Part shown: positions 16,422 through 35,339 of the stretch, one piece after another
Numbering within the stretch: the stretch's first letter is position 1
Layout of the letters: the number at the start of each line of letters is the position of its first letter
Source: Nitrospiraceae bacterium
GTDB lineage: Bacteria > Nitrospirota > Thermodesulfovibrionia > UBA6902
Length of the DNA: 48,566 bases
Direction: 5' to 3'
NCBI GenBank assembly: GCA_020346765.1
Contig: CP070788.1
Span: 2,165,488 to 2,214,053 of the forward strand
Translations under genes and position numbers: made by a program
The notes under the pieces: model-generated
Seen by the model: the letters and a program-made list of their open reading frames with translations, nothing else
The model's database searches: none
What the model was told of the DNA's origin: nothing

Positions 16422-17489
16422 CTAATCCGCCGAAGGGTAGGAGCCGAGGACCTTGAAGAACAGGCATTCCTTCTGCACTTCCCTGATAGCCCTCATGACG
16501 TTCTTCTCTTCAATGTGCCCTCCCATATCCACAAAGAAGATGTACTCCCAGGCCTTTCTCTTGGAAGGCCGCGACTCGATCTTCGTGAGGTTGATCTTGT
16601 GCCGGGCAAAAGGCCGGAGGATGAGAAAGAGGGCCCCTGGTTTGTCTTTGATGGAGAACATGATCGATGTCTTGTCCTTTCCTGTCTTGCCCGGTGACTC
16701 CTTCGCAATGACCAGGAACCGTGTGACGTTTCTCTTATTGTCTTCGATCCCCTTTTCAATGAAGTTCAGTTCGTATTCCGCTGCGGCAAGCTCACTGGCG
16801 ACCGCGGCAGCAGATGGGTCTTTCATCACGCGCCGGGCTGCTGCGGCAGTGCTCAGCTCATCGATGATGGGCACTCCCGGGAAGTTTCTTTCAAGCCAGC
16901 CCCTGCACTGTGCCTTTGCCTGAGGGTGGGAGTAGATTTCCTTTACGTCTTCCTTTAAGCCGGTCTTTGACAGCAGGTTGTGGGAGATCTCGAGCATGAT
17001 CTCCGAGGCGATCATCAGATCCGAGTCCATGAACATGTCGAGGGTGTAGTTGACGACGCCCTCGGTGGAGTTTTCTATGGGCACCACGCCGTAGTTCACT
17101 CTGTTCCTGAACACGGCCTCAAACACGTCCTTGATGGTGCTCTCAGGCATATACTTCGATGAGGAGCCGAACTTTCTCCTCGCGGCAAGATGGGTGAACG
17201 TGGCCGAGGGCCCCAGATAGGCGACCTTCAGCGGCTGCTGAAGGGCCACCGATGCAGAGAGGATTTCCTCGTAGATCAGATTGAGCGTCTCATTCGGAAA
17301 GGGCCCGGGATTGGTTTCCTTTAGCCTGCGGAGGATGGCCTTCTCCCGCTCCTGGGAATGGACCTTGATCTGTTTGTCCTGCTTTGCCTTGCCCACGGCG
17401 ATGGCTATTTCGGCCCTCCTGTTCAGGAGTTGCAGGATTTTTTCGTCGATTTCATCGATCTGCTTTCTGAATTGTTCGAGATCGCTCAT
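16422..17489 (-). CDS. pheA: Bifunctional chorismate mutase / prephenate dehydratase (P-protein)
   Basis: An N-terminal CM domain (LEQFRKQIDEIDEKILQLLNRRAEIA) is followed by the PDT domain (VAYLGP..TFTH) and an ACT domain with the ESRP motif (TKIESRPSK). Confidence 0.95.
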   Translation of the reverse strand: MSDLEQFRKQIDEIDEKILQLLNRRAEIAIAVGKAKQDKQIKVHSQEREKAILRRLKETNPGPFPNETLNLIYEEILSASVALQQPLKVAYLGPSATFTHLAARRKFGSSSKYMPESTIKDVFEAVFRNRVNYGVVPIENSTEGVVNYTLDMFMDSDLMIASEIMLEISHNLLSKTGLKEDVKEIYSHPQAKAQCRGWLERNFPGVPIIDELSTAAAARRVMKDPSAAAVASELAAAEYELNFIEKGIEDNKRNVTRFLVIAKESPGKTGKDKTSIMFSIKDKPGALFLILRPFARHKINLTKIESRPSKRKAWEYIFFVDMGGHIEEKNVMRAIREVQKECLFFKVLGSYPSAD

Positions 17490-17618: not shown

Positions 17619-17879
17619 TCAAGATAAATAAGCGGGTAGGCGGTAAATTGGGAAAGTCCGAAAGCGCGTATGCAGGGGCGCTGTGCCCGCGCCCTCAACA
17701 GGTCGGCTGGGAGATTTATGGATTTTTCTGAAGCTGCGGCTGTGCAGCTTCCAGACCCGCTTTCTGATAGCCGCGATGTCTTCTATGACCTGGAAGAATC
17801 CGATACACAGGTTCACCACAGATACCATGATGGTGATCATTATGAGATAGACAACCGCCGTTAAAATATTCTGTGCCAT
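17619..17879 (-). CDS. Hypothetical small membrane protein downstream of the permease-molybdoenzyme fusion
   Basis: An AGGAGG SD lies 7 nt before the ATG. The N-terminal 30 aa form a clear TM helix (ILTAVVYLIMITIMVSVVNLCIGFF). The C-terminal half is basic and low-complexity, so the true length is uncertain. A TATAAT lies at 17904-17899. Confidence 0.4.
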   Translation of the reverse strand: MAQNILTAVVYLIMITIMVSVVNLCIGFFQVIEDIAAIRKRVWKLHSRSFRKIHKSPSRPVEGAGTAPLHTRFRTFPIYRLPAYLS

Positions 17880-17947: not shown

Positions 17948-20900
17948 TCACAATCCGTCAGGCTTGATGACCCGTACCATAATGTCGCCAAAACCCGGTG
18001 TTCCCGTAAAGGCATTGATGTTCTGCGGGTCATGCAGCTCATTGACATTGGGGGTATACCCGCAGGTTGCGTTGATAAATCCCAGTCCGGATGCCCGCTG
18101 GCCCCCGGGGCCGAAGGGCACCTTGATAACTCCCGGCATGATCTCTTCCGTGAGGAGTGCCTTTCCCGCTATCCTCCGTTTCAGGGGGTTTTCAAGGATA
18201 ATCAGGTCTCCCGTCCTGATCCGCATGGCTTCGCCATCGCTCCTGTTCAGGGCAAAGACCGGGATCGATACCGTCCCTGCCCTCAGAAGGCTATTCCCGG
18301 TTTCCGGGAGCCCGGAATGGTTGGGAGTTGCTGAAAGGGGCGGCATGGCATATTCAAAATCATTGTTCAGCGGGGCCATGCACTCCGTCTCTGTCTCAGA
18401 CAGGTAGGAGCATATGACGGTCATGGTCATTGAGTGATGCACCCTCCCGCTGATGAGCTGGAAGGGATACTGGCGGCTCAGTTGCCGGTAGCGGGGATTC
18501 TTCGGGTTCCAGTTGCAGTCTGCCCAGTAGAAGGTCGTGGGAAAGGAGGTTCCAAACCTTTTGTTGATTTTTTCAAGATACCCGAAGGTAAACTCAAACT
18601 TCCCTGACGGTGTTGCCGGGCATTTCCCAGAAGGCGTACCGTCTGACTTCCTGTACCGGTAGTAACTGGCGGGCCAGATGGCAACGCCGTTATGTTTTCT
18701 CAGCCAGTCAACGGTGAGCAGTTCCCCGGTACTGATGACCGTGTCACCCCAGACGGCCCTCGGGTTGTCGGGCGCGCCTATGATCAGGCACCCCTCGGGA
18801 AGGTCCGGATAGGGAAGGGGGGTGCCGATGTTGTAAAAACCCGGCGTATCAAGCAGCTGCTCGTTAATGAAATCCCTCTCCCTTGCGTATTTCTGTCCAA
18901 AGTCTTCGGCCCGGATGTCAGGGTCGCCGTTTCTGATGAATGCATCGGCCATGAAGACCATAAATTCAAAGCTGGTCTTTGATTCATGGAGCGGTTTAAT
19001 CACTTTGTCCCTTAGGGCAATCTCGGGGCTCATGGTGTAAACGCTGCTCAGCCCCATCCGCTCAAGGAACCCTGCCTCAGGGAAGACAACGTCTGCGTAC
19101 GTGCCGCTCACAGTGATATGGGTATCAATGTGTACATTCAGTTCAACAAGGTATGCCCCCTTTTCATCGCGTGCCGTCAGGGCATCTACCCAGTCCTGCC
19201 TGCTGCCGGCAGTGATGACCGGGTTGCCAGCCCTCGTGACCAATGCCTTTACAGGATAGGTATAGTCCCTGAAGGGCCCATGCTTCAGCGTGATGCCGTT
19301 TCGGATCTTTTCGGGCAGGTTGGCGAGCACCCCGGCGGGTGAGGCAGGATAATCGCCGCAGGCGTCCTTGTCCATCATTGACAGGCTGCCGGAAACATCC
19401 GTGCCGAAGATGTCCCGCGTCACCGTCCTGTTCAGGAATTCAAGGCCCGCGGTTCTGGCCCCCTTTTTCGGCTTGTGGGGTCCCATGAGCACCAGGCCGC
19501 CGGGACGGTCCACATTTCCCGTAATCAGGCACAGGGCCGTAGCCAGGATCGACGTGACATCTCCGTTGGTGTGATGGGCAGTGCCGTGCATGCCCACTTC
19601 AATTGACGCGGGCTTGGTGATGCCAAAGAGATGGGATATTTTTTTGATATCCCCTCTGGGGATGCCGGTTTTTTCTTCGGCCCATTCCGGTGAAAAGTAA
19701 GACAGGCTGTTTGATGGATCCTTCCTCTTTGCCTGTGCCATGAAGGCATCCCTGAATTCCTGCCAGCCGATGGTGTAGTTGTCAATAAACTCCTTGTCAA
19801 TGTAGCACTGCGAGGGGTAGTCCTGGCAGTAGTTTTCAATAATATAATGGAGCATGGCCGCGAGCAGGGCAGCGTCCGTGCCCGGGATTATGTGGAGCCA
19901 CATGTCCGCGAGGGCAGCGGAATTGGTATGCGCGGGGTCAATCACGATGTACTTGCAGTTATTGTCTGTCCGCGCCGCCGTAATGCCGCCTGACATGTAG
20001 TTGAACCGTGTTGCCACAAAGGGATTTACGCCGACATTCACGATGAGTTTCGCGTCCTGTCTGTCCCGGTACGTCAATTCCCCCTGCTCGTTTCTGGTCA
20101 GGAGGGGCCGCTGCACATCGGGGAGGGGCCTGCTGTCGCCGGTCATGAGCCTGTGACCCCAGCGGCGGTTGGGGTCGCAGATGCTTCCGTGATGGAGGAT
20201 GTTCGGGGTCCCGAAGGCGCGGAAAAGCCGCTCATAGGCAATGCCGTCGGACATGTCCCCGCCGTTGTAGATAACTGCCTCGGGCCCGTGCTTCTTCTTT
20301 ATGCCGATCAGTTTTTTTGTGACATAGTCAGCGGCCTCTTCCCAGGTTACTGGCCTCCACAGGTCTTCACCCCGCTCTCCTGTCCGTATCAGGGGCGTCC
20401 TGACCCTGTGCGGGGAATAGGTGAGCTGCAGTCCTGAGGCTCCCTTCGCGCAGACCGCACCGCTGCTAACACAGGAATGGGGATTGCCATAGATTTTTTT
20501 CGCAATACCGTCCTCAACAAGTACAGACAGCCCGCACTCGGATGGGCACATGCTGTCGGCAGTGTAGACATATTTCTGCACTGGCGGTGCAGGGGTGGTG
20601 CCGTCGGACTCACGGGCTGCTTCCTTAACGGGAAACCGGGAAACAGACCGCCCCCTGGGGATCTCATAGTTTTTCAGGGGCGCATGCATTCCATGGTCCT
20701 CGGGGGCCAGATAAAAAACACGGGGGAAGCTCCCGTGTTCAGGGTTCAGGACCTTTATCTGGCGCCGCGAGAGGAGCTTTGCGATTTCACTGTCCCTGTC
20801 ATTCATGTCGCCAAAGATCATTGCTTTTCCCATGCAGCTCATGACGCAGACGGGCTCTTCACCGCGCTTTAGCCTGTCATAGCAGAAATCGCATTTTTCA

Positions 20901-22039
20901 GGCCCGCCGGTGCGGGGATTGATATCGATGGCATGATAGGGACAGTACTCATAGCACTTCCGGCACTCCACATGGGTGGGGCATTTGCTCCTGTTTATGA
21001 GGACTGTGCCATCCGGGGTCTTGAAAATAGCATCCTGTTCTTCACAGGCCTCAATGCAGGGAGGCTTGTCGCAGTGATTGCAGAGGCGGGGAAGAAAGAA
21101 CTTTTTCACATCGGGGTAATGCCCTGACTGGACTGTCTCGACGAAGCAGCGAAAGGCACCGAAGGGGACATCGTGCTCAGCCTTGCAGGTAACCTGGCAG
21201 GCATGGCAGCCCGTGCATTTGCTGAGGTTGATGACCATGGCGTAGTTTATGCCCTTCTTTTTCCTCTCTGAAGTCCACGACGAAGGCCGCCTCAGGAATT
21301 TGTATTTGGGAAAGAGCATGAACTCGTCCCTGCTTACATCGGGCCGGTAGGACTGAAAATCATAAATCCCGATTCTCTTCTCGAGTTTTCCGGCAACGAA
21401 CGAAAGGCCGGAGCAGACGAGGAAGAACCCGGCAGCGATACTGGCATATGCGGCGATCATCTGGTCCGGCTCCCGGTAGCTGACGATGAAACCCGCCTGG
21501 GTGAGCTCAATGACGCCGATAATAAAGACAGTCGAGGTGTCTTTGAACAGGGAGATAAAAAAGCTGATGAAGGAGGGGACCATCATCCTGAAGGCCTGGG
21601 GAAGTATCACGTACCCCATTGACTCATAGCGGGACATGCCCGATGCAAGCGCCGTTTCAAGCTGGCCCCGGGGCACTGCCGTTATGCCGGCCCGGACGAT
21701 CTCGGCCTGGTAGGCGGCGGCGTAGAAGCAGAGAGAAAGGACAACAGTCCAGAACACGCTTATATGTATACCAAACAGCGTGGGGATGACATAGTAGAAC
21801 CAGAATATGATGATAAGAAGGGGAGTTGCCCGGACGATTTCAACGTAGGCGATGCAGGGGATTTTCACATACAAACGAGAAGACAGCCTGCTGTAGCCGA
21901 AGAGAACGCCGACGGAAAAACTTAGCGAAAGGGCAAGAACGGCAAAGATGAGGTTCAGGAGCAGGCCGCCCGGCTCTCCCCGGGGGAAGGCCCCCATGAG
22001 ATAAAAATCCCAGTTGGCGAGCATATTAAAGGCACCCAT
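17948..22039 (-). CDS. Fusion protein: amino-acid-type ABC transporter permease (aa 1-225), four-cluster 4Fe-4S ferredoxin of DmsB/PsrB type (aa ~264-445), and molybdopterin (bis-MGD) oxidoreductase catalytic domain (aa ~488-1363)
   Basis: This is a single uninterrupted 1363-codon ORF. The permease has an EAA loop QLETALASGMSRYESMGYVILPQAF. The Cys groups are CTGCHACQVTC, CNHCDKPPCIEAC, CPTHVECRKCYEYCP and CDFCYDRL..CVMSC. The MopB N-terminus reads MCPSECGL..HSCVSSGAVCAKG, followed by HHGSICD, IVIDPAHT and IIPGTDAAL motifs and a C-terminal binding barrel. Confidence 0.85.
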   Translation of the reverse strand: MGAFNMLANWDFYLMGAFPRGEPGGLLLNLIFAVLALSLSFSVGVLFGYSRLSSRLYVKIPCIAYVEIVRATPLLIIIFWFYYVIPTLFGIHISVFWTVVLSLCFYAAAYQAEIVRAGITAVPRGQLETALASGMSRYESMGYVILPQAFRMMVPSFISFFISLFKDTSTVFIIGVIELTQAGFIVSYREPDQMIAAYASIAAGFFLVCSGLSFVAGKLEKRIGIYDFQSYRPDVSRDEFMLFPKYKFLRRPSSWTSERKKKGINYAMVINLSKCTGCHACQVTCKAEHDVPFGAFRCFVETVQSGHYPDVKKFFLPRLCNHCDKPPCIEACEEQDAIFKTPDGTVLINRSKCPTHVECRKCYEYCPYHAIDINPRTGGPEKCDFCYDRLKRGEEPVCVMSCMGKAMIFGDMNDRDSEIAKLLSRRQIKVLNPEHGSFPRVFYLAPEDHGMHAPLKNYEIPRGRSVSRFPVKEAARESDGTTPAPPVQKYVYTADSMCPSECGLSVLVEDGIAKKIYGNPHSCVSSGAVCAKGASGLQLTYSPHRVRTPLIRTGERGEDLWRPVTWEEAADYVTKKLIGIKKKHGPEAVIYNGGDMSDGIAYERLFRAFGTPNILHHGSICDPNRRWGHRLMTGDSRPLPDVQRPLLTRNEQGELTYRDRQDAKLIVNVGVNPFVATRFNYMSGGITAARTDNNCKYIVIDPAHTNSAALADMWLHIIPGTDAALLAAMLHYIIENYCQDYPSQCYIDKEFIDNYTIGWQEFRDAFMAQAKRKDPSNSLSYFSPEWAEEKTGIPRGDIKKISHLFGITKPASIEVGMHGTAHHTNGDVTSILATALCLITGNVDRPGGLVLMGPHKPKKGARTAGLEFLNRTVTRDIFGTDVSGSLSMMDKDACGDYPASPAGVLANLPEKIRNGITLKHGPFRDYTYPVKALVTRAGNPVITAGSRQDWVDALTARDEKGAYLVELNVHIDTHITVSGTYADVVFPEAGFLERMGLSSVYTMSPEIALRDKVIKPLHESKTSFEFMVFMADAFIRNGDPDIRAEDFGQKYARERDFINEQLLDTPGFYNIGTPLPYPDLPEGCLIIGAPDNPRAVWGDTVISTGELLTVDWLRKHNGVAIWPASYYRYRKSDGTPSGKCPATPSGKFEFTFGYLEKINKRFGTSFPTTFYWADCNWNPKNPRYRQLSRQYPFQLISGRVHHSMTMTVICSYLSETETECMAPLNNDFEYAMPPLSATPNHSGLPETGNSLLRAGTVSIPVFALNRSDGEAMRIRTGDLIILENPLKRRIAGKALLTEEIMPGVIKVPFGPGGQRASGLGFINATCGYTPNVNELHDPQNINAFTGTPGFGDIMVRVIKPDGL

Positions 22040-22045
22040 AGCGGA

Positions 22046-22777
22046 CTATGCCCTTCCCCTGATAATGCTGGCCGGATCGATCCTCAGCCGTCGCTCAAGG
22101 AGGATTACCGCCGATGCCATGATCAGCGAGAGGCCCACGTAAAATACCGTGGCCGCGATGATGGCTTCGGTACCTCTGAAGGAGAGCGATTCTACCTGCT
22201 GCGTTGCCCAGGTGAGTTCGTGGGCGGTGATGGCCATGCACAGCGTTGTGTTTTTGAAGTTGTGGACCATGCGCGTGCCCAGGGGGGGCAGCGTTACCCT
22301 GAACATCTGGGGAAGCAGCACGTAGAGATACTGCTGGATCCGGCTGAGTCCCGTTGCAATTGCTGCCTCCCTCTGCGTCTGGGGAATCATGAGCCTGCCG
22401 CTTTTCAATATGTCCGAAACGTGAGAGGCATTGTCCAGGGTCAGCGCTGCGATGCTCGCCGCCACGGGATAGTAAAGATAGCCGTTGAGCGTTGTCCCCA
22501 GCTCCCCGGGAAGCAGTTCGGGGAACAGGTAGTAGAAAAAGAGCATCCAGAAGAGCACAGGGATGCTTTGGACGACCTTAACGTAGGCGTCTCCGGCAAA
22601 CTGAAGAGCCCTGATCCGTGATACCCTGAAAACTGAAATCGCCGTTCCCAGGAGAAGGGATGCCAGCGATGAGGCAACAAATATGAGAAGGGTAAACTGA
22701 ATGCCATCAACAAGGATCCGTGAGTAGGGCTCGGTGAAGAGTATCTCCCATTTAAAATCATATTTTAAATCGAGAAT
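22046..22777 (-). CDS. Amino-acid-type ABC transporter permease (HisM/GlnP family), probably starting at a non-canonical ATT
   Basis: The track ORF begins at the GTG at 22558. The same frame stays open and permease-like upstream (WEILFTEPYSRILVDGIQFTLLIFVASSLASLLLGTAISVFRVSRIRALQFAGDAYVKVVQSIP), with no in-frame ATG, GTG or TTG. A GGGAGGA SD (22790-22784) lies 6 nt upstream of the ATT at 22777-22775. The EAA loop is QREAAIATGLSRIQQYLYVLLPQMF. Confidence 0.75.
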   Translation of the reverse strand: MLDLKYDFKWEILFTEPYSRILVDGIQFTLLIFVASSLASLLLGTAISVFRVSRIRALQFAGDAYVKVVQSIPVLFWMLFFYYLFPELLPGELGTTLNGYLYYPVAASIAALTLDNASHVSDILKSGRLMIPQTQREAAIATGLSRIQQYLYVLLPQMFRVTLPPLGTRMVHNFKNTTLCMAITAHELTWATQQVESLSFRGTEAIIAATVFYVGLSLIMASAVILLERRLRIDPASIIRGRA

Positions 22778-22913
22778 GGTTAATCCTCCCTGACTACCGC
22801 ACTGCTAACGCGATTCGTGAGCATTCCCGAAGCATGGTCATGAGGCCAAATAAAGGATTTCCCAGCGTGAAATCCGGTTAACAGAACGGCACACGTGATT
22901 TAATCGTGAATAT

Positions 22914-22943
22914 ATTGTAATAATCGGTTCATGTCTTTTGCAA
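22914..22943 (-). promoter_or_regulatory. Putative sigma-70 promoter of the permease / molybdoenzyme operon
   Basis: On the minus strand: TTGCAA (22943-22938), an 18-nt spacer and TACAAT (22919-22914). This would leave a ~130-nt leader. Confidence 0.35.
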
Positions 22944-23069
22944 TTTTCCTTCTGCTCAACATGCAGCCCGGGCCGGGTTGAAATTGACAGTGCCGGGACT
23001 GGCTGGTATAGTAAAAACCTGATTCCTGCAGTGAACAGCCCTGTTAATCAGGAATAGGAGAACGCCGGA

Positions 23070-23420
23070 ATGCCCTATCAGATAGACTGGAATATTTCCC
23101 TTGACTGCCTTACCAGTGATGACCTTCTGAAAAAGATTGAGGGGGCAAGAAATTTCATCCTCATTGACACCATTGGAACCTACGGCGGAAACAGGTGCCG
23201 GATAAAGGGGGCCACAACCATTCCCTACCCTGACGTGGTTGACAGGCGGAGGGAATTCCTTGGCTTTCAGGAGATAATCGTGTACTGCAAGGAAAAGAGT
23301 TGCGTTGCGTCCAAGAAAGTCGCTTCTGCCCTTAAAATGCTGAATGTCCCCAATGTGTGTGTTTACGAAGGCGGCATCATGGAGTGGCTGAGAAACGGTC
23401 TTCCTGTGGAAGACTATTGA
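23070..23420 (+). CDS. Single-domain rhodanese-like sulfurtransferase
   Basis: LIDT....Y...RIKGA..IPY and the active-site loop YCKEKSCVASKK fit the rhodanese fold. An SD-like AGGAGA lies upstream. Confidence 0.75.
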   Translation: MPYQIDWNISLDCLTSDDLLKKIEGARNFILIDTIGTYGGNRCRIKGATTIPYPDVVDRRREFLGFQEIIVYCKEKSCVASKKVASALKMLNVPNVCVYEGGIMEWLRNGLPVEDY

Positions 23421-23433
23421 TATCAGGGCAGAG

Positions 23434-25428
23434 ATGAAGCAGTTCGCTACACGGTCGGGCTGCAGATACCCTCCTGGAGCATCCATTCACGGCCGCGGTG
23501 TCAACTTCTCCGTATTCAGCCAGCATGCGACGGGGGTTGAACTTCTCCTGTATGAAAAGGCGGTAAGCCCGGAACCCTTTCAGATAATCAGGCTGGACCC
23601 CGAGATCAACAGGACCTTTTTCTTCTGGCATGTCTATGTGGAAGACCTTCCCGCGGGAACGCACTACACCTGGCGCGTTGAAGGGCCCGGGGACACGGAC
23701 CGCACGGGGTACTGTTTTGACAGGAACGCAGAGCTCCTCGACCCCTGGGCACGGGCAGTGTCCCATGACCTCTGGACCAGGAGGAGGCCGCCGGCAGCGG
23801 GCGGGCCGGCCCATGCATCCATGCGCGGCATTGTGATCGAGAATGACTACGAATGGGAGGGTGACCGGCCCCTCAATCACCCGATGGAGACGTCAATTAT
23901 CTATGAACTCCACGTGGGCGGATTCACTCGGCACCCGTCATCGGGCGTCCGCTCGCCGGGGACCTTTGCAGGCCTGATCGAGAAAATCCCCTACCTGAAA
24001 GAACTGGGTGTCACCGATGTGGAGCTTCTGCCTGTCATGGCCTTTGATGAGCAGGCCCTGCCCAAACATGAAGCCGTGAAGGGCCTGAGGAATTTCTGGG
24101 GCTATATGACGCACAGTTTTTTCAGCCCCCATCCCGGGTACTGTCGTGCCCCGCAGACTGGCTCGCACCAGCGCGAGTTCCGTGACATGGTACAGGCCTT
24201 GCACAATGCGGGCATCGGCGTGATTCTCGATGTTGTCTTCAACCATACGGCTGAGGGCGGAAGAGGGGAGCCTGTCATCAATTTCAGAGGCCTGTGCAAT
24301 GAGCTTTTCTACCATCTTGATGAGGCAGACCGGCGCAAATACCGTGATTACACGGGCTGCGGCAACACGGTGAACTGCAATCACCCCTTTGTCTCGAGTT
24401 TCATCGTGTCCTGCCTGGACTACTGGGTACGCGAGATGCACGTGGACGGCTTCCGCTTTGACCTTGCCAGTGCCCTCGCCCGGGGTGAGGACGGGGAACC
24501 CATGAAGCATGCCCCCGTGCTCTGGAGCATAGAGTTTTCCGACGTGCTTGCTCACTCGAAAATCATTGCCGAGGCATGGGACCTTGGAGGGCTTTACCAG
24601 GTAGGTGACTTCCCGGGCTTCCGGTGGTCGGAGTGGAACGGCAGGTACCGCGATGTGATCAGGCAGTTTGTCCGGGGTGAAAAGGGGCTGGTCGGTGAAG
24701 TTGCCACGCGGATCAGCGGCAGTAGTGATCTGTATCAGTCAAGCGGGAAACTCCCCATCAACAGCATCAATTACGTCACCTGCCACGACGGGCATACCCT
24801 CTATGACCTGGTGAGCCTGGACGAGAAAAAGGATGAGGCCGCGAGAAGGAGGCAGATAAAAAATTACATGGCCATCCTGCTGCTGAGCCAGGGTGTCCCC
24901 ATGATCCTTGCGGGTGATGAAATGCTGAGGACGCAGGGTGGAAACAGCAATGCCTACTGCCAGGACAATGAAATCAGCTGGATTGACTGGCGCCTTGCCA
25001 AGATCAACGCGGACATGGTCCGTTTTGTCAGGGAAATGATCGCCTTGCGGAAGCGCCATCCTTTGCTCATGCGACGGAACTTTCTGACGGGACGCAGGCA
25101 AAACAGCCGGGGTATTCCTGATGTGCGCTGGCATGGCATAAAGCCAGACAGGCCGTTATGGGAGGACCGGAATGCCCGGTTTCTTGCCTACACCCTGGGA
25201 GCTGTGGCTGATGGGGAAGAAGACATCCATGTCATGGTGAATATGTCTAAAAAACAGGAACTGGCTGAGCTTCCTGCCATTCCGGGGAGAAAGTGGCACG
25301 TGACAATTGATACGGGCAGGCCTTCACCGATGGATATCTGTACGCCCTCTGAGCGCAGCCCGGTGAGAGGAACGGCATATTCTGTGAGCCGGCGCAGCGT
25401 TGTTGTGCTGGAAGGACTGCCCCGGTAA
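23434..25428 (+). CDS. glgX: Glycogen debranching enzyme (isoamylase, GH13)
   Basis: GVNFSVFS..A..VELLLY, YELHVGGFT, GVILDVVFNHT, GFRFDLAS, EAWD and the YVTCHDG blocks are typical of GlgX. Confidence 0.9.
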   Translation: MKQFATRSGCRYPPGASIHGRGVNFSVFSQHATGVELLLYEKAVSPEPFQIIRLDPEINRTFFFWHVYVEDLPAGTHYTWRVEGPGDTDRTGYCFDRNAELLDPWARAVSHDLWTRRRPPAAGGPAHASMRGIVIENDYEWEGDRPLNHPMETSIIYELHVGGFTRHPSSGVRSPGTFAGLIEKIPYLKELGVTDVELLPVMAFDEQALPKHEAVKGLRNFWGYMTHSFFSPHPGYCRAPQTGSHQREFRDMVQALHNAGIGVILDVVFNHTAEGGRGEPVINFRGLCNELFYHLDEADRRKYRDYTGCGNTVNCNHPFVSSFIVSCLDYWVREMHVDGFRFDLASALARGEDGEPMKHAPVLWSIEFSDVLAHSKIIAEAWDLGGLYQVGDFPGFRWSEWNGRYRDVIRQFVRGEKGLVGEVATRISGSSDLYQSSGKLPINSINYVTCHDGHTLYDLVSLDEKKDEAARRRQIKNYMAILLLSQGVPMILAGDEMLRTQGGNSNAYCQDNEISWIDWRLAKINADMVRFVREMIALRKRHPLLMRRNFLTGRRQNSRGIPDVRWHGIKPDRPLWEDRNARFLAYTLGAVADGEEDIHVMVNMSKKQELAELPAIPGRKWHVTIDTGRPSPMDICTPSERSPVRGTAYSVSRRSVVVLEGLPR

Positions 25429-25767: not shown

Positions 25768-26520
25768 ATGAACATGTTCCTGTCAGACTTTTTCATTGTA
25801 CTGATTATCGGTGCGGTTGGCGGTTTCTTTAACACCTTTGTCGGAGCAGGAAGCCTTTTCACGATTCCCGTCCTGATCGTACTTGGACTGCCTCCCCACG
25901 TGGCAATTGCCACAAACAGGCTGGGAGTGACAGGATCAGACATCGCCGGATGGTATGGATTCCACATCAAGGGGGTGATAGACTACCGGGCCGGCATCGC
26001 GCTTGCAGTTCCCTCCCTGGCAGGGGCCGTCATCGGGGCAAACCTTGTTGTCCACATCGATGAAAAGATTCTCAGGGCAATCATTGCAATCATCAGTCTT
26101 ATTATCCTGCTGCTGATCGTGATGAAGCCCGACGCAGGTATCAGCAGGACAAAGGCCAGGTCAGGCTTCAGACCCTACGTCATGGGTGTTGCCCTGAGCT
26201 TCATTGTGGGGATCTACGGGGGATTCTACGGGGCAGGGGCAGGGACATTCCTTTTTTATATCCTTGTACTCATCTTTGGACAGACATTTATTGAAAGCGC
26301 GGGAACTCATGAGCTGGCAAATCTGTCATTTTCAGCCATGGCTGCGGCAATCTTTGCTTACAAGGGGCTGATCGATTACGGCTGGACCATACCCCTTTTT
26401 ATCGGCTCCTTTGCCGGGTCCTACCTGAGTGCCTACCACGCGGAAAAGATAGGAAATGTGTGGCTGAAGAGAATCTTCGTGATTGTTGTCATTGCTGTCG
26501 TGATTAAACTCTTTGTCTAG
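25768..26520 (+). CDS. TauE/SafE-family (DUF81) anion exporter membrane protein
   Basis: The 250-aa polytopic protein has two halves, each carrying a G.GGG...P motif (GAVGGFFNTFVGAGSLFTIP and GIYGGFYGAGAGTF). Confidence 0.8.
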   Translation: MNMFLSDFFIVLIIGAVGGFFNTFVGAGSLFTIPVLIVLGLPPHVAIATNRLGVTGSDIAGWYGFHIKGVIDYRAGIALAVPSLAGAVIGANLVVHIDEKILRAIIAIISLIILLLIVMKPDAGISRTKARSGFRPYVMGVALSFIVGIYGGFYGAGAGTFLFYILVLIFGQTFIESAGTHELANLSFSAMAAAIFAYKGLIDYGWTIPLFIGSFAGSYLSAYHAEKIGNVWLKRIFVIVVIAVVIKLFV

Positions 26521-26769: not shown

Positions 26770-27273
26770 CTACGCCTTATGTATTGTTTCCCCGAAGATG
26801 AACTGGCAGCAGCCGAGGTCAAGGATCCGGTTGTTGTCTTTGAACCGGGACTTGAGATTATCGGAGATGTGATAGATCCGGTGGACCCCGTCTTTTCTTT
26901 TTTTGAGAAGGCCGCTTGTCTCGAGGATTTTCAGGTGCTTTGATATGTTGTAGGGCTTGATGCCAAGAGAATCGGAAAGGTCCTGAACGGAAGACTCCTT
27001 CCTGAGCAGCTCGTGAATGATCTGGAGACGGTTTTCATCGGCAAGGGCCTTTAAGATGGTTGTCCAGTTCAGGTGGGCTTCAAGGTCTGAATTACCGTCG
27101 TGCCGTTCCATATATGTATGATAGAGCCTTGTCATACTGAAAATCAACCTCTCCGGACTGGCATTCTGATGGATGTGCAGCAGGGCCGGGGTGTTTCTTT
27201 CAAGGTCGCTTACGTGCAACTGCGGAGTTCCGGACTCTGCACTCCTTCTGAAAAGGGAAGTTGACGTGGGCAT
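26770..27273 (-). CDS. ArsR-family winged-helix transcriptional regulator (N-terminal extension and start uncertain)
   Basis: ILKALADENRLQIIHELLRKESSVQDLSDSLGIKPYNISKHLKILETSGLLKKRKDG is a canonical ArsR HTH. It is divergent from the GT2 operon. Confidence 0.7.
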   Translation of the reverse strand: MPTSTSLFRRSAESGTPQLHVSDLERNTPALLHIHQNASPERLIFSMTRLYHTYMERHDGNSDLEAHLNWTTILKALADENRLQIIHELLRKESSVQDLSDSLGIKPYNISKHLKILETSGLLKKRKDGVHRIYHISDNLKSRFKDNNRILDLGCCQFIFGETIHKA

Positions 27274-27410: not shown

Positions 27411-28931
27411 ATGCTCCTCTATCTTTTTCTTGCGGTCTATTTTTTTATCCTCATCACGGTCTTTATTTACGCTTCTCACCGCTATTATATGGTCTATCTC
27501 TACTACAGGCACCAGAAGGACAGGCCGGTGCTCAAGGACAGGCTGACCCGGCTCCCCCGCGTGACGATCCAGCTTCCGGTCTATAATGAGATGTACGTGC
27601 TCAGGCGCCTCATATCAGCTGCCTGTGACGTTGATTATCCCCGGGAGCTTCTGGACATCCAGGTCCTTGACGATTCCACGGACGAGACGAAGGACCTTGC
27701 CCGGGACTGCGTGCAGGAATTCAGGGAAAAGGGGTTCGACATTCGGTATATCCACCGGGAAAAGAGGGAGGGGTTCAAGGGCGGCGCCCTGCAGAACGGC
27801 CTTGTCTCTGCAAAGGGGGAATTCATTGCGGTGTTCGATGCCGATTTTGTTCCCCAGAAGGACACCTTGCAAAAGACGGTCCACTTCTTTGCCGATCCCT
27901 CTGTGGGAATGGTTCAGACGCGCTGGTCCTACCTGAACCGTGACTATTCATTCCTCACGAAGATTCAGGCCATCATGCTTGACGGGCATTTTGTCATCGA
28001 ACATACGGCCAGAAACTGGTCAGGCCGGTTCTTCAATTTTAACGGGACTGCGGGGATATGGAGGAAGCAGGCAATAGAATCATCGGGAGGATGGCAGAAT
28101 GATACGCTTACCGAGGACCTGGACCTGAGCTACCGGTCCCAGCTCAAGGGCTGGAAGTTCATCTACCTGAAGGACGAACTCGCACCCTCGGAGATCCCTG
28201 TTGAGATAAACGGTTTCAAGAGCCAGCAGCACCGGTGGGCAAAGGGATCCATTCAGACGGCCAAGAAACTGCTGCCCCGGATTCTGAAGAGCGACCTCCC
28301 CCTGAAGGTCAAGGTGGAGGCATTCTTTCATCTCACCAATAACAGTTCATACCTGCTGATGCTCATCCTCTCCCTGCTGATCTATCCGTCCATGGTGGCG
28401 CGGATCAACATCGGGTGGTTTCAGATGCTTGTCACCGATGTCCCCTTTCTTCTCGTGGCCACGGTGGGGATATCCTTTTTCTATATCTGTTCACAGAGAG
28501 AGGCCTACCGGAACTGGAAATCGAGGATTATTTACCTGCCCACGCTCATGTCACTGGGCATCGGGCTGTCCGTGAACAACTCGAGGGCAGTGCTGGGGGC
28601 TCTCTTTAACCGGAGGACGGAATTCAAGCGCACTCCCAAGTACAGTATTAAAGGGAAAAAGGACCGTTGGCTCGGCAAGAAGTACCGGGGGGAGATCAAC
28701 GGAGTCGTTCTCATGGAACTCATGCTGGGGATCTACTTCACCTTTAATATCTATTTTGCCATTGTCAACAAGATCTACGTTTCCATCCCCTTTCTGATGA
28801 TGTTTCAGATGGGATATTTTTATGTTGCTTTTCTTTCGATTTTTCAAGTAGTATTGAGTGGCATTGCATCTAACAGGCTGACGCGCTTTATCTATTCGAA
28901 GAGAAACGCGGAAGACGTTATGGCAGCGTAA
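27411..28931 (+). CDS. Membrane-embedded processive family-2 glycosyltransferase (cellulose-synthase / CslA-like)
   Basis: An N-terminal TM helix is followed by the GT-A core: QLPVYNE, VLDDSTD, FDADF, TEDLDLS and the QxxRW motif (QQHRWAKG). Four to five C-terminal TM helices follow. Confidence 0.85.
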   Translation: MLLYLFLAVYFFILITVFIYASHRYYMVYLYYRHQKDRPVLKDRLTRLPRVTIQLPVYNEMYVLRRLISAACDVDYPRELLDIQVLDDSTDETKDLARDCVQEFREKGFDIRYIHREKREGFKGGALQNGLVSAKGEFIAVFDADFVPQKDTLQKTVHFFADPSVGMVQTRWSYLNRDYSFLTKIQAIMLDGHFVIEHTARNWSGRFFNFNGTAGIWRKQAIESSGGWQNDTLTEDLDLSYRSQLKGWKFIYLKDELAPSEIPVEINGFKSQQHRWAKGSIQTAKKLLPRILKSDLPLKVKVEAFFHLTNNSSYLLMLILSLLIYPSMVARINIGWFQMLVTDVPFLLVATVGISFFYICSQREAYRNWKSRIIYLPTLMSLGIGLSVNNSRAVLGALFNRRTEFKRTPKYSIKGKKDRWLGKKYRGEINGVVLMELMLGIYFTFNIYFAIVNKIYVSIPFLMMFQMGYFYVAFLSIFQVVLSGIASNRLTRFIYSKRNAEDVMAA

Positions 28932-33674: not shown

Positions 33675-35108
33675 ATGAAGCACAAAAAGGCCCTTTTTAT
33701 TGTGCCCCCGACGGGGCTGTTTTACCGTGACGACCGGTGCCAGGTGTCGCTGAAGGGCGTGTCCAACGCGCCGCGGCCGCCGCTGGACCTTGCGTACATG
33801 TCAGCGGTCCTTGAGGAGAAGGGGATCGAGTGCCGGATGAGGGACTACCCCGTTGAAGGGGGGAGCTGGCAGGATGTGGAAGAGGAGATCAGGGGCTTTG
33901 CGCCGTCGCTGCTGGTGATCTACACGACGATTACGTCGGTGAAGGATGACCTGCGTGCCTGCGGGATCGCCAAGGCGGTGAAGGGGGAGATCGTGACCAT
34001 AGCCAAGGGGGGAGACACCACGATCAGCCCTGAGGAGCGGCTTGAGCTCTGTGAAGACCTGGACATAGCCATTATCGGGGAGCCTGAGGTGACCATGCTG
34101 GAGATAGCCGAGGGGCGTGAGCGGAAGGAGATCCTGGGGATCTGCTTTCGGGAGGAGGGGCGAGTGGTCAGGACGGGGCGGCGTCCTTTTGTGGAGGATA
34201 TCGACCGGTTCCCCTTTCCGTCGCGGCACCTCCTTAAGCAGGAGCTCTATGTGAGGCCCGACACGGGGGAGGTGCAGACAACGGTGCAGTCCAGCCGGGG
34301 GTGTCCAGCCAAATGCATCTACTGCCTGAGCCGTGTGGTGGCAGGGGCGGAGCTGAGGCTGAGGTCGCCGGGGAATGTGGTGGATGAGCTGGAGCACTGT
34401 GTGCGGGAGTACGGGATCAGGAACTTTTTTTTCCGGGCGGACACCTTTACCTGGGACCGGGAGTGGGTGGTGGCGGTGTGCCGGGAGATCCTGAGGAGGA
34501 AGCTGGACATCCAGTGGGTGGCGAACAGCCGGGCGAACACGATCTGCGCGGAGCGGCTCATGTGGATGAAGAGGGCGGGGTGCTGGCTGGTGTCCTTCGG
34601 GGTAGAGAGCGGGAACCAGTATATCCTGGACATGACGCAGAAGGGGATAACCCTTCAGGAGTCGCGGGAGGCGCTGAGGCTGGCGAAGAAGCACGGGCTG
34701 AAGACCTTTGTGACCTTTCTGATCGGGATGCCCTGGGACACGCGTGAGACGATCATGGAGACCTTTGACTTTGCCCGGGAGATCGACGGGGACTACTTTG
34801 AGGTGATCCTGCCCTATCCGTTTCCGGGGACACGGTACTATGAAATTGCGAAGCGTGACGGGCTGATAGAGGAAGGGGCCTATGACAAATTCTATGACCA
34901 CTTCAACTCCGTGGTGAGGACCTATCACCTGACTGCTGCTGAGCTTACGGAGCTGAAGAAGAAGTCCTTCTGGTATCTGTACGCACGGCCCCGGTACATC
35001 AAAAAGATCATATCCCAGTGCGACTCGCCCAGGGCGCTGAAAAACTACCTCTCCTTCGGCATCAGCAAGATGAAGGCCCATTTCGGAGGGGAGCCAGGGA
35101 GAAGATGA
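33675..35108 (+). CDS. B12-binding-domain radical SAM protein (class B)
   Basis: An N-terminal cobalamin-binding-like Rossmann region (ALFIVPP...PPLDLAYMSAVLEEKGIE) is followed by the radical SAM cluster motif SSRGCPAKCIYC and a GVESG motif. Confidence 0.85.
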   Translation: MKHKKALFIVPPTGLFYRDDRCQVSLKGVSNAPRPPLDLAYMSAVLEEKGIECRMRDYPVEGGSWQDVEEEIRGFAPSLLVIYTTITSVKDDLRACGIAKAVKGEIVTIAKGGDTTISPEERLELCEDLDIAIIGEPEVTMLEIAEGRERKEILGICFREEGRVVRTGRRPFVEDIDRFPFPSRHLLKQELYVRPDTGEVQTTVQSSRGCPAKCIYCLSRVVAGAELRLRSPGNVVDELEHCVREYGIRNFFFRADTFTWDREWVVAVCREILRRKLDIQWVANSRANTICAERLMWMKRAGCWLVSFGVESGNQYILDMTQKGITLQESREALRLAKKHGLKTFVTFLIGMPWDTRETIMETFDFAREIDGDYFEVILPYPFPGTRYYEIAKRDGLIEEGAYDKFYDHFNSVVRTYHLTAAELTELKKKSFWYLYARPRYIKKIISQCDSPRALKNYLSFGISKMKAHFGGEPGRR

Positions 35109-35339
35109 AGGGCGGTATAAAAAAGAGTCTTTACCGGAGGCAGAAAACTTTCTTGACATGAACAGAACGGCAATCTCTATAGGTGATCTCATGTAAAGGG
35201 CATATGCTCCTCGTTCTCACGGGAAGCATAGGGGAGGATGTTGCTCGAACGTACGAGAGGGCCCTGTACCAAGCGGGGTAACAGGTTTTCCCAGGGGGAG
35301 GGCAGGAAGAGAGGCCGTTCCAGCGAAAGGAGGAATACA

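Follow-up and report, generated by a model that had tools for sequence, protein, structure and literature searches.

Complex iron–sulfur molybdoenzymes (CISM) of the PsrABC/PhsABC type combine a molybdopterin catalytic subunit (MopB) with an iron–sulfur (FeS) subunit. In these enzymes, including the structurally known Thermus PsrABC (PDB entry 2VPW), the two subunits are as a rule separate chains, are usually exported through a twin-arginine translocation (Tat) signal and sit on a PsrC/NrfD quinol anchor. A link between Psr and Sud/rhodanese proteins is also known. ArrAB from Shewanella (6CZ7) is likewise periplasmic, Tat-exported and made of separate subunits, and this two-subunit A+B enzyme has no integral anchor. 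SoeABC sulfite dehydrogenase and NarGHI, which serve sulfur and nitrogen oxyanion metabolism, face the cytoplasm; their MopB and FeS subunits have no export signals and are held by an NrfD-type or cytochrome b quinone-reactive anchor. Type I ATP-binding cassette (ABC) importers such as Art(QN)2 (4YMS), GlnPQ and HisQMP2 contain transmembrane domains (TMDs) of five transmembrane helices (5-TM). These TMDs tolerate covalent accessory domains, for example a substrate-binding domain (SBD) in the SBD–TMD chains of GlnPQ and OpuA, or a kinase and a solute-binding protein (SBP) in kinase–SBP–TMD proteins such as P0094. To our knowledge, no ABC importer bears a redox enzyme on its permease, and we know of no CISM that has an ABC permease as its membrane partner. 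Here we describe a gene that encodes this combination. It lies in a 48,566-nucleotide stretch of a Nitrospiraceae genome (GenBank assembly GCA_020346765.1, contig CP070788.1, positions 2,165,488 to 2,214,053), which is called the window below. The gene, named the fusion, joins an ABC permease (PermB) through a short tail to a four-cluster ferredoxin and a bis-molybdopterin guanine dinucleotide (bis-MGD) MopB domain. A second, separate permease (PermA) is encoded directly upstream.

A comparison with the known systems shows that the parts are familiar and the combination is new: the product is a CISM with an ABC-permease partner and equally an ABC importer with a tethered enzyme. The closest solved relatives by sequence are Thermus PsrA (1e-36) and then Shewanella ArrA (2e-34), and the ferredoxin is of the four-cluster PsrB type. 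A neighbouring rhodanese gene recalls the Sud link of Psr. In contrast to PsrABC/PhsABC, the fusion has no Tat signal, hence is cytoplasmic, and no PsrC/NrfD anchor. Its B and A subunits are fused in B-then-A order, an Asp replaces the first Cys of cluster FS0, about 215 residues (1025-1241) have no Pfam match, and the membrane partner is an ABC permease. Where SoeABC and NarGHI use a quinone-reactive anchor, a cofactor-less importer TMD is found here. With Art(QN)2, GlnPQ and HisQMP2 the locus shares the TMD fold and length, the EAA loop, the five helices, a permease pair like HisQ/HisM and, in relatives, a GlnQ-type ATPase. It differs from them in the missing SBP gene, the ATPase-first order, the tail or enzyme on the second permease and the ATT start on the first. 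Among the top 150 representative hits, every importer with fused domains carries them N-terminally, as periplasmic or sensor-like modules, and ends with the TMD; here it is a cytoplasmic redox enzyme that comes after the TMD. When residues 100-330, which span the junction, were searched against 1.84 billion representative proteins, none outside the clade covered both halves, and full-text literature searches found nothing describing a permease–ferredoxin–molybdoenzyme fusion. The same unfamiliarity had been voiced in a preliminary description of this DNA, which was made from the sequence alone. The 'MOLY' cluster of PMC12998232, Tat-exported and chaperone-dependent, is another system.

Overall Architecture and Recurrence of the Fusion

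The fusion is one ORF (open reading frame) of 1363 codons without internal stop. A Pfam profile scan gives the order BPD_transp_1 (residues 64-223, 48.5 bits against a cut-off of 26.4), Fer4_2 (267-287), Fer4_11 (312-411, 87.5 bits), Molybdop_Fe4S4 (489-542, 39.6 bits), Molybdopterin (545-1025, 111 bits) and Molydop_binding (1241-1350, 26.6 bits, slightly below the cut-off of 26.8). The N-terminus also matches the NCBIfam GlnP, EhuD and cystine permease models. The ferredoxin part, which is fused N-terminal to the catalytic domain, matches models of the TtrB/DsrO/NrfC type, with the TtrB model at 173 bits. Its 16 conserved Cys fall in four groups and are invariant; group III in the fused clade reads C-x5-C-x2-C-x3-CP. 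The preliminary description had recognized the single reading frame from permease to molybdopterin oxidoreductase, the four Cys groups and the pairing with a second permease of the same family with an EAA loop 6 nt upstream, and all of these hold.

Our homologue search covered 5.8 billion proteins. It returned twelve further fused clusters with the same domain order (1359-1369 aa, full-length identity 64-74%) from assemblies of NCBI, JGI and Logan, which brings the total to 13, and the fusion is found on at least nine independent contigs. This recurrence excludes chance and mis-assembly. Among seven fused genes, amino acid identity and dN are 0.70 and 0.206 for the permease TMD, 0.68 and 0.210 for the ferredoxin and 0.70 and 0.204 for MopB. 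The EAA region is the most constrained (0.78 and 0.154), and the linker between ferredoxin and MopB has values of 0.32 and 0.735. Synonymous sites are saturated (pS ~0.8), hence dN and identity are compared and not omega. The permease is constrained as strongly as the enzyme, and all domains are under purifying selection.

A scan of GTDB species gave 52 loci, all in metagenome-assembled genomes (MAGs) of uncultured, sulfur-cycling Thermodesulfovibrionia/Nitrospirota. Classification from stop-to-stop frames with phmmer distinguishes three architectures. Most genomes have a divergent 116-aa rhodanese gene and a ~1090-aa FeS-MopB gene with no permease. In seven loci (L011, L018, L019, L039, L040, L050 and L051) permA, permB and FeS-MopB are separate and consecutive. 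In the third, that of the fused clade, the gene after permA is permB continued in frame into FeS-MopB. Neighbour joining on the FeS-MopB part groups the fused genes in one clade; two short forms (L009 and L010) nest within it and are read as secondary losses. Both the short and the unfused enzymes begin right at the ferredoxin (e.g. MSNQPKRYAMLIDLERCIGC), with no twin-arginine motif or hydrophobic segment at their start, and therefore the enzyme is cytoplasmic in all three architectures.

Catalytic Domain

The usual FS0 motif of such enzymes is C-x2-C-x3-C-x(n)-C. In the fusion it is D495-x2-C498-x3-C502...C530, with Asp at the usual first-Cys position, and this Asp (codon ~20555-20557, minus strand) is present in at least 90% of the homologues. 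The replacement suggests an Asp-ligated [4Fe-4S] cluster or a [3Fe-4S] cluster. The N-terminal FeS cluster expected in the preliminary description is matched by Molybdop_Fe4S4, with the correction that its motif has three Cys plus Asp. Its candidate Mo ligand, the Cys of HHGSICD, proved well chosen: in the alignment C621 falls on Cys173, which binds Mo in Thermus PsrA, and on the ligand Cys of ArrA.

An AlphaFold2 (AF2) model of residues 226-1363 has a mean predicted local distance difference test (pLDDT) score of 81 and a predicted template modelling (pTM) score of 0.86. With Foldseek, the MopB fold is matched at template modelling (TM) scores of 0.70-0.77 on the targets. ArrA (E 1.5e-36, TM 0.70 on target), acetylene hydratase and PsrA lead the list, and DMSO/TMAO reductases rank lower; in the sequence search, too, they come after Psr, Arr and Fdh. 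The fold search could not discriminate the substrate class, since ArrA, acetylene hydratase, PsrA, Fdh and Nap score alike. Among the curated NCBIfam catalytic models the best is PhsA (NF012032), with 223.7 bits against a cut-off of 694 and a match confined to residues 487-1031. Lower scores are given by dmsA_ynfE (188 against 778), ArrA (NF041714, 136 against 1600) and bisC_fam (78 against 1018), and all NCBIfam matches of the fusion fall well short of their equivalog cut-offs. Judged by its sequence, the enzyme is a distinct Psr/Phs/Arr-like family outside every named one. Import-coupled reduction of an amino-acid-like S- or N-oxide, as first proposed for this locus, is not supported. Identity as an S-/N-oxide reductase is rejected on the Psr/Phs/Arr affinity and on Cys at the ligand position, which is Ser in DmsA, TorA and BisC, and the rhodanese, ArsR and TauE partners point to sulfur.

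Permease Pair

Type I importer permeases carry, between TM3 and TM4, an EAA loop of the pattern EAA-x3-G-x9-I-x-LP. It is intact in the fusion at about residues 125-150 (LETALASGMSRYESMGYVILP) and in PermA (REAAIATGLSRIQQYLYVLLP). Both loops had been noticed before and turn out to be the most conserved segment of the TMD. Residues 23-224 of the fusion align end to end with residues 16-215 (of 220) of ArtQ in 4YMS, and an AF2 model of residues 1-470 shows five long helices at 26-50, 56-89, 95-121, 137-183 and 191-223. Residues 220-300 contain 15 Lys/Arg and residues 1-29 only one, which fits an N-out/C-in orientation, and the hydropathy profile of the fusion has nothing hydrophobic beyond residue 220. 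The PermB TMD would thus be an ArtQ-type 5-TM domain with its N-terminus outside and its C-terminus inside, as homology and the positive-inside rule indicate; the five helices with a cytoplasmic end that had been assumed earlier agree with alignment, model, hydropathy and charge distribution. Because the TMD is C-in and no hydrophobic segment follows, the ferredoxin and MopB are placed on the cytoplasmic face, beside the presumed site of the dimer of nucleotide-binding domains. Tat export and a periplasmic location are ruled out by this topology, with its Lys/Arg-rich tail, and by the absent twin-arginine (RR) motif, in line with the cytoplasmic redox module of the preliminary description.

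The frame of permA stops 6 nt ahead of the ATG of the fusion. Its frame and position had been given correctly; its start at 22777 turns out to be an ATT codon (22775-22777), with no in-frame ATG, GTG or TTG before 22558. The sole possible initiator is an Ile codon in 13 of 15 permA genes (11 ATT, one ATC and one ATA). Its place in the alignment is always the same, with a GGAGG-like motif 5-9 nt ahead of it, and only L005 (ATG) and L006 (GTG) have canonical starts. Besides the window, the loci with this non-canonical start, in permA or its paralogue permA', are L003, L004, L007, L008, L011, L018, L019, L039, L040, L050 and L051; they offer no ATG, GTG or TTG ahead of TM1. In most loci 20 codons around a conserved FDW motif precede the first canonical start. 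Codon differences in this segment are 574 synonymous and 843 non-synonymous in frame, compared with 144/1280 and 136/1290 in the other frames, and this in-frame synonymous excess argues that the N-terminal segment is translated. Gene callers shorten permA genes to 126-223 aa or miss them.

Tail Between Permease and Ferredoxin

A tail of 37 residues (IGIYDFQSYRPDVSRDEFMLFPKY...) between TM5 and the ferredoxin is kept in all fused forms. In all unfused operons its motif, D[YF][EQ]S[YF][RK]P[DE]xxR[DE][ED][FL][ML]L.P, stands free at the end of PermB. Those permB' copies, found in ATPase operons, that do not adjoin the enzyme lack it or have a degenerate version. The motif co-occurs with enzyme-adjacent permB and is absent elsewhere, which suggests that PermB uses this tail to engage the enzyme and that fusion turned the contact into a covalent link. 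In the structural models the tail seems to behave like a flexible linker bearing a short linear motif. The models give no structural support for docking of the tail, be it on the enzyme or on the TMD, its pLDDT being below 50 in both AF2 models.

At positions 11474-11725 of L040, between the unfused permB and FeS-MopB, a degraded permB C-terminus runs into the FeS-MopB frame (...LFPKN...). It could be the remnant of a former fusion or of gene conversion and suggests fusion/fission dynamics.

Genomic Context

The coordinates of the fusion, its parts and the neighbouring features are collected in Table 1.

Table 1. Features of the fusion locus (positions in the window; strand + or -).
Feature	Position	Strand	Basis
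Fusion gene (permB TMD, tail, four-cluster ferredoxin, MopB)	17948..22039	-	Single ORF, Pfam order, 12 more fused clusters
permB TMD, residues 1-225, ABC type I importer, 5 TM	21365..22039	-	BPD_transp_1, GlnP/EhuD/cystine permease models, ArtQ 4YMS
Tail/linker, residues 226-262, predicted disordered, cytoplasmic	21254..21364	-	Conservation, pLDDT <50
PsrB/TtrB/DmsB-type ferredoxin, residues 263-450, four Cys groups	20690..21253	-	Fer4_11, TtrB model, invariant Cys
Variable linker between ferredoxin and MopB, residues 451-487	20579..20689	-	Identity 0.32, dN 0.74, low pLDDT
bis-MGD MopB catalytic domain, residues 488-1363	17951..20578	-	Pfam, PsrA/ArrA matches, AF2, Foldseek
permA, second unfused ABC permease, 243 aa, EAA loop	22046..22777	-	BPD_transp_1 56.2 bits (cut-off 26.4), GlnP model 101 bits
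Shine-Dalgarno-like GGGAGGA, 6 nt upstream of permA ATT	22784..22790	-	Sequence
Promoter-like site of permA-fusion operon, TTGCAA-18-TACAAT	22914..22943	-	Consensus scan only
Promoter-like site of rhodanese gene, TTGACA-17-TATAGT with TG	22984..23012	+	Consensus scan, 11/12 matches
Rhodanese, single-domain, 116 aa, divergent from operon	23070..23420	+	PF00581, 39 bits
TauE/SafE-family anion (sulfite-type) exporter	25768..26520	+	Pfam TauE, 148 bits
ArsR-family regulator, C-terminal LDLGCCQF, likely start internal Met ~27111	26770..27273	-	HTH_5
GT2	27411..28931		Synteny with L058/L060
pheA	16422..17489		Synteny with L058/L060

Wherever the sequence of an unfused operon reaches far enough upstream, the gene immediately before permA encodes a GlnQ-type ATPase (GPSGAGKS...LSGGE), and the full four-gene operon ATPase-permA-permB-FeS-MopB is present in L018, L019, L039, L040, L050 and L051. 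At least five fused-type genomes (L058, L060, L003, L005 and P0011) retain an ATPase-permA'-permB' block. In L058 and L060 the order is GT2 (reverse), ArsR, sometimes PilZ, ATPase, permA', permB', TauE (reverse), rhodanese (reverse), permA, fusion and pheA. The block lies elsewhere on the same 82-kb contig in the genome of L003, followed there by an OprO/P-type porin gene, and on another contig in the MAG of L005; the contig of P0011 is judged to hold an ATPase orthologue. The window is syntenic with L058/L060 in GT2, ArsR, TauE, rhodanese, permA, fusion and pheA, and it contains no Walker A/LSGGQ ATPase within any real ORF over its 48.5 kb. The earlier statement that the locus has no ATPase is therefore true of the window and does not extend to the family. 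The absence of an SBP and of an NrfD/DmsC or cytochrome b anchor was also noted before. Pfam scanning of the flanking genes in the window finds no SBP, NrfD/DmsC or cytochrome, and an unbiased census of neighbours agrees: only ArsR (29 loci), rhodanese (21 loci) and housekeeping synteny recur, with no recurrent NrfD/PsrC, cytochrome or Hdr-like partner.

The rhodanese gene stands immediately upstream of short and fused forms in ~21-25 loci. Its active loop, YC-KEKS-C-VASKK in the window, is six residues long, and the pattern YC-x4-C-xASKK with an invariant C-x4-C is kept in ~25 homologues. The ArsR homologue is found in 33 loci of all three architectures, always adjoining the rhodanese/FeS-MopB module and always with the C-terminal LDLGCC[KQ]F. 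With its vicinal Cys it may be a persulfide or a metalloid sensor; the pairing of ArsR-type persulfide sensors with rhodaneses and TauE-like exporters is a known theme (BigR/SqrR/YgaV). TauE is present in three fused-type genomes, those of the window, L007/L058 and L060. A k-mer screen of the rhodanese/permA intergenic region for an ArsR operator gave only an AT-rich word of the GTTAAATTAA type (10 of 20 loci) and a TTGACA-containing word, neither clearly palindromic in the window. A search for an upstream riboswitch, e.g. for the molybdenum cofactor (Moco), gave no Rfam match anywhere in the window.

Several further features were observed. Tandem rhodanese genes occur in L003 (five) and L007 (three). 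In related fused loci the ATPase-permA'-permB' block lies between TauE and ArsR, and the window is without it. A gene for a GlgX/isoamylase-type debranching enzyme (23434-25428, plus strand) separates rhodanese and TauE in the window; in related fused loci rhodanese and TauE are direct neighbours. An 86-aa ORF (17619-17879, minus strand), hydrophobic at its N-terminus, follows closely after the fusion; it has no Pfam match and may be spurious. The region 33675-35192 of the window has GC up to 0.60, a GC skew of +0.23, long overlapping ORFs (477 aa on the plus and 463 aa on the minus strand) and no Rfam match. At L035:13315-14097 the gene next after a short-form FeS-MopB gene encodes an orphan GlnQ-type ATPase, and the 23 kb there contain no permease gene. 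An ORF of ~100 aa without Pfam match precedes the ATPase in a subgroup of the unfused operons (L050:8750-9055 and L039:6549-6878). Its two versions have in common a C-terminal KDKPP and a signal like that of lipoproteins (...IIPLLCC / IIPMMGC...); it might encode a minimal binding or accessory protein. An OprO/P-type anion porin gene follows the ATPase-permA'-permB' block at L059:3906-5111, and a sulfatase gene lies directly upstream of permA in the fused locus L062 (6910-8883).

Proposed Coupling of Import and Catalysis

The reading we prefer, to which we give about an even chance, is that a cytoplasmic Psr/Phs-like enzyme is physically tied to an ABC importer. The fusion and PermA would form the heterodimeric membrane part of a GlnPQ/Art-type (type I) importer, and the second permease would carry on its cytoplasmic C-terminus the four-cluster ferredoxin and the bis-MGD MopB domain with Cys621 as Mo ligand. 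The ancestral state would be separate genes in one operon (ATPase, permA, permB, enzyme), in which recruitment of the enzyme probably falls to the conserved short tail of PermB. One Thermodesulfovibrionia clade would have duplicated the permease pair and joined the copy with the tail in frame to the enzyme. In ancestral operons the ATPase gene would lie in cis, and fused genomes would provide it in trans. The series from soluble enzyme through four-gene operon to fusion speaks strongly, at the genomic level, for joint action of transporter and enzyme.

On leaving the pore at its inner face, an imported sulfur solute would pass straight to the reductase and be reduced or otherwise transformed there. 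Likely candidates are thiosulfate, polysulfide, persulfide or an S-conjugated amino-acid-like compound. The C-x4-C rhodanese would handle or shuttle sulfane sulfur, a sulfite-type product would leave through TauE, and the locus would be under the control of the ArsR-type Cys-Cys regulator. A soluble or trans-encoded donor would supply electrons by way of the four [4Fe-4S] clusters. A sulfur compound is favoured over an S- or N-oxide because the rhodanese, ArsR-type regulator and TauE partners, the Psr/Phs/Arr-like affinity and the sulfur-cycling host lineage all point to it.

Several observations weigh against this reading. Canonical type I importers require an SBP, and no SBP gene (SBP_bac_3-type) is found in the ~60 loci examined, although it could be encoded elsewhere. 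The ATPase-permA'-permB' block is absent at the syntenic site in the window and in L063, and queries with the L058 ATPase and the window's permA gave no close orthologue from the window's genome among the top hits; permA of the window is itself missing from the database searched, probably because it was never called. These results suggest indirectly that the window's genome has lost the ATPase block and may hold no cognate ATPase. The neighbour census shows no electron donor encoded nearby. No docking of the tail (residues 226-262) is predicted in either AF2 model (226-1363 and 1-470), where the alignments over this segment were shallow. All curated MopB equivalog models score far below their cut-offs, gene context does no more than suggest the substrate, and the neighbour-joining trees carry no support values.

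The chief rival, which we consider unlikely, is that the permease pair no longer transports and has been exapted as a tether that places the Psr/Phs-like enzyme at the inner membrane face, e.g. beside a trans-encoded electron-donating membrane complex or a separate sulfur importer. Besides the missing SBP and ATPase orthologue, it would account for the lack of a nearby ATPase in about half of the fused loci with adequate flanks (the window, L006, L061, L062 and L063), in contrast to the unfused operons, which all have one, and for short forms that evidently work as soluble enzymes without a permease. However, the EAA loop is the most conserved part of the permease also in loci without a local ATPase, a mere anchor would need no second permease gene with a conserved unusual start, and a dedicated ATPase belongs to the ancestral operons and is kept in at least five fused genomes. 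An exapted anchor had been offered as an alternative in the preliminary description; it keeps some probability, set against a permease as constrained as the enzyme and an EAA loop even more so.

The same architecture may serve a different chemistry. An arsenic or selenium oxyanion is the main alternative to a sulfur substrate. Reduction or oxidation by the enzyme of an oxyanion of arsenic, selenium or tellurium, with the ArsR-type regulator as metalloid sensor, seems to us improbable. ArrA is the top structural and the second-best sequence match, the vicinal Cys pair of the regulator is a known kind of As(III) site in the ArsR family, a phosphate/anion-type porin gene follows the ATPase block in L059, and L003 has a TerC gene. 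On the other hand, the PhsA model outscores the ArrA model (224 against 136 bits), and the six-residue rhodanese loop has sulfurtransferase length and is not of the Cdc25/Acr2 C-x5-R type. TauE membership and the sulfur-cycling host lineage point to sulfur, and no ars genes are among the nearby genes scanned.

We regard it as very improbable that the tethered enzyme is a sensor or gate, switching the transporter by the cytoplasmic redox or substrate state in a manner like trans-inhibition. The flexible conserved tail would permit large movements, and cytoplasmic regulatory domains are known on other ABC importers (the C-terminal domains of MetNI and ModBC). However, an enzyme of ~1100 residues that keeps its whole cofactor set, a Mo ligand without variation and each of the 16 ferredoxin Cys is maintained like a catalyst, and it is free-standing in most genomes. 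Finally, a sequencing or assembly error that removed a stop between two genes, or a decaying pseudodomain, is effectively refuted: fusions in single assemblies are often errors and L005 has a break inside its ferredoxin part, but the same in-frame junction with its conserved linker recurs in all 13 clusters from the three sources, with purifying selection on every domain.

Implications

A stronger form of the preferred coupling, which we regard as possible and rather doubtful, is that importer and molybdoenzyme form one obligatory machine for vectorial, import-coupled redox chemistry resembling group translocation. If this is true, a reactive sulfur solute would pass from the pore into the enzyme funnel and never be free in the cytoplasm. 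The machine would have no classical binding protein, and it would be a CISM with an ABC permease in place of the quinol-oxidising anchor. With the series of soluble enzyme, four-gene operon and fusion, transport-coupled catalysis can be put to a direct test. Because of its conserved ATT start, permA is truncated or dropped by current gene callers, and the system is systematically mis-annotated. Thermodesulfovibrionia are central to subsurface sulfate reduction and sulfur disproportionation, and the enzymology of these processes is still unsettled. In this lineage, the cytoplasmic Psr/Phs-like enzyme together with the C-x4-C rhodanese and the ArsR-type regulator constitutes an undescribed and widespread core module.

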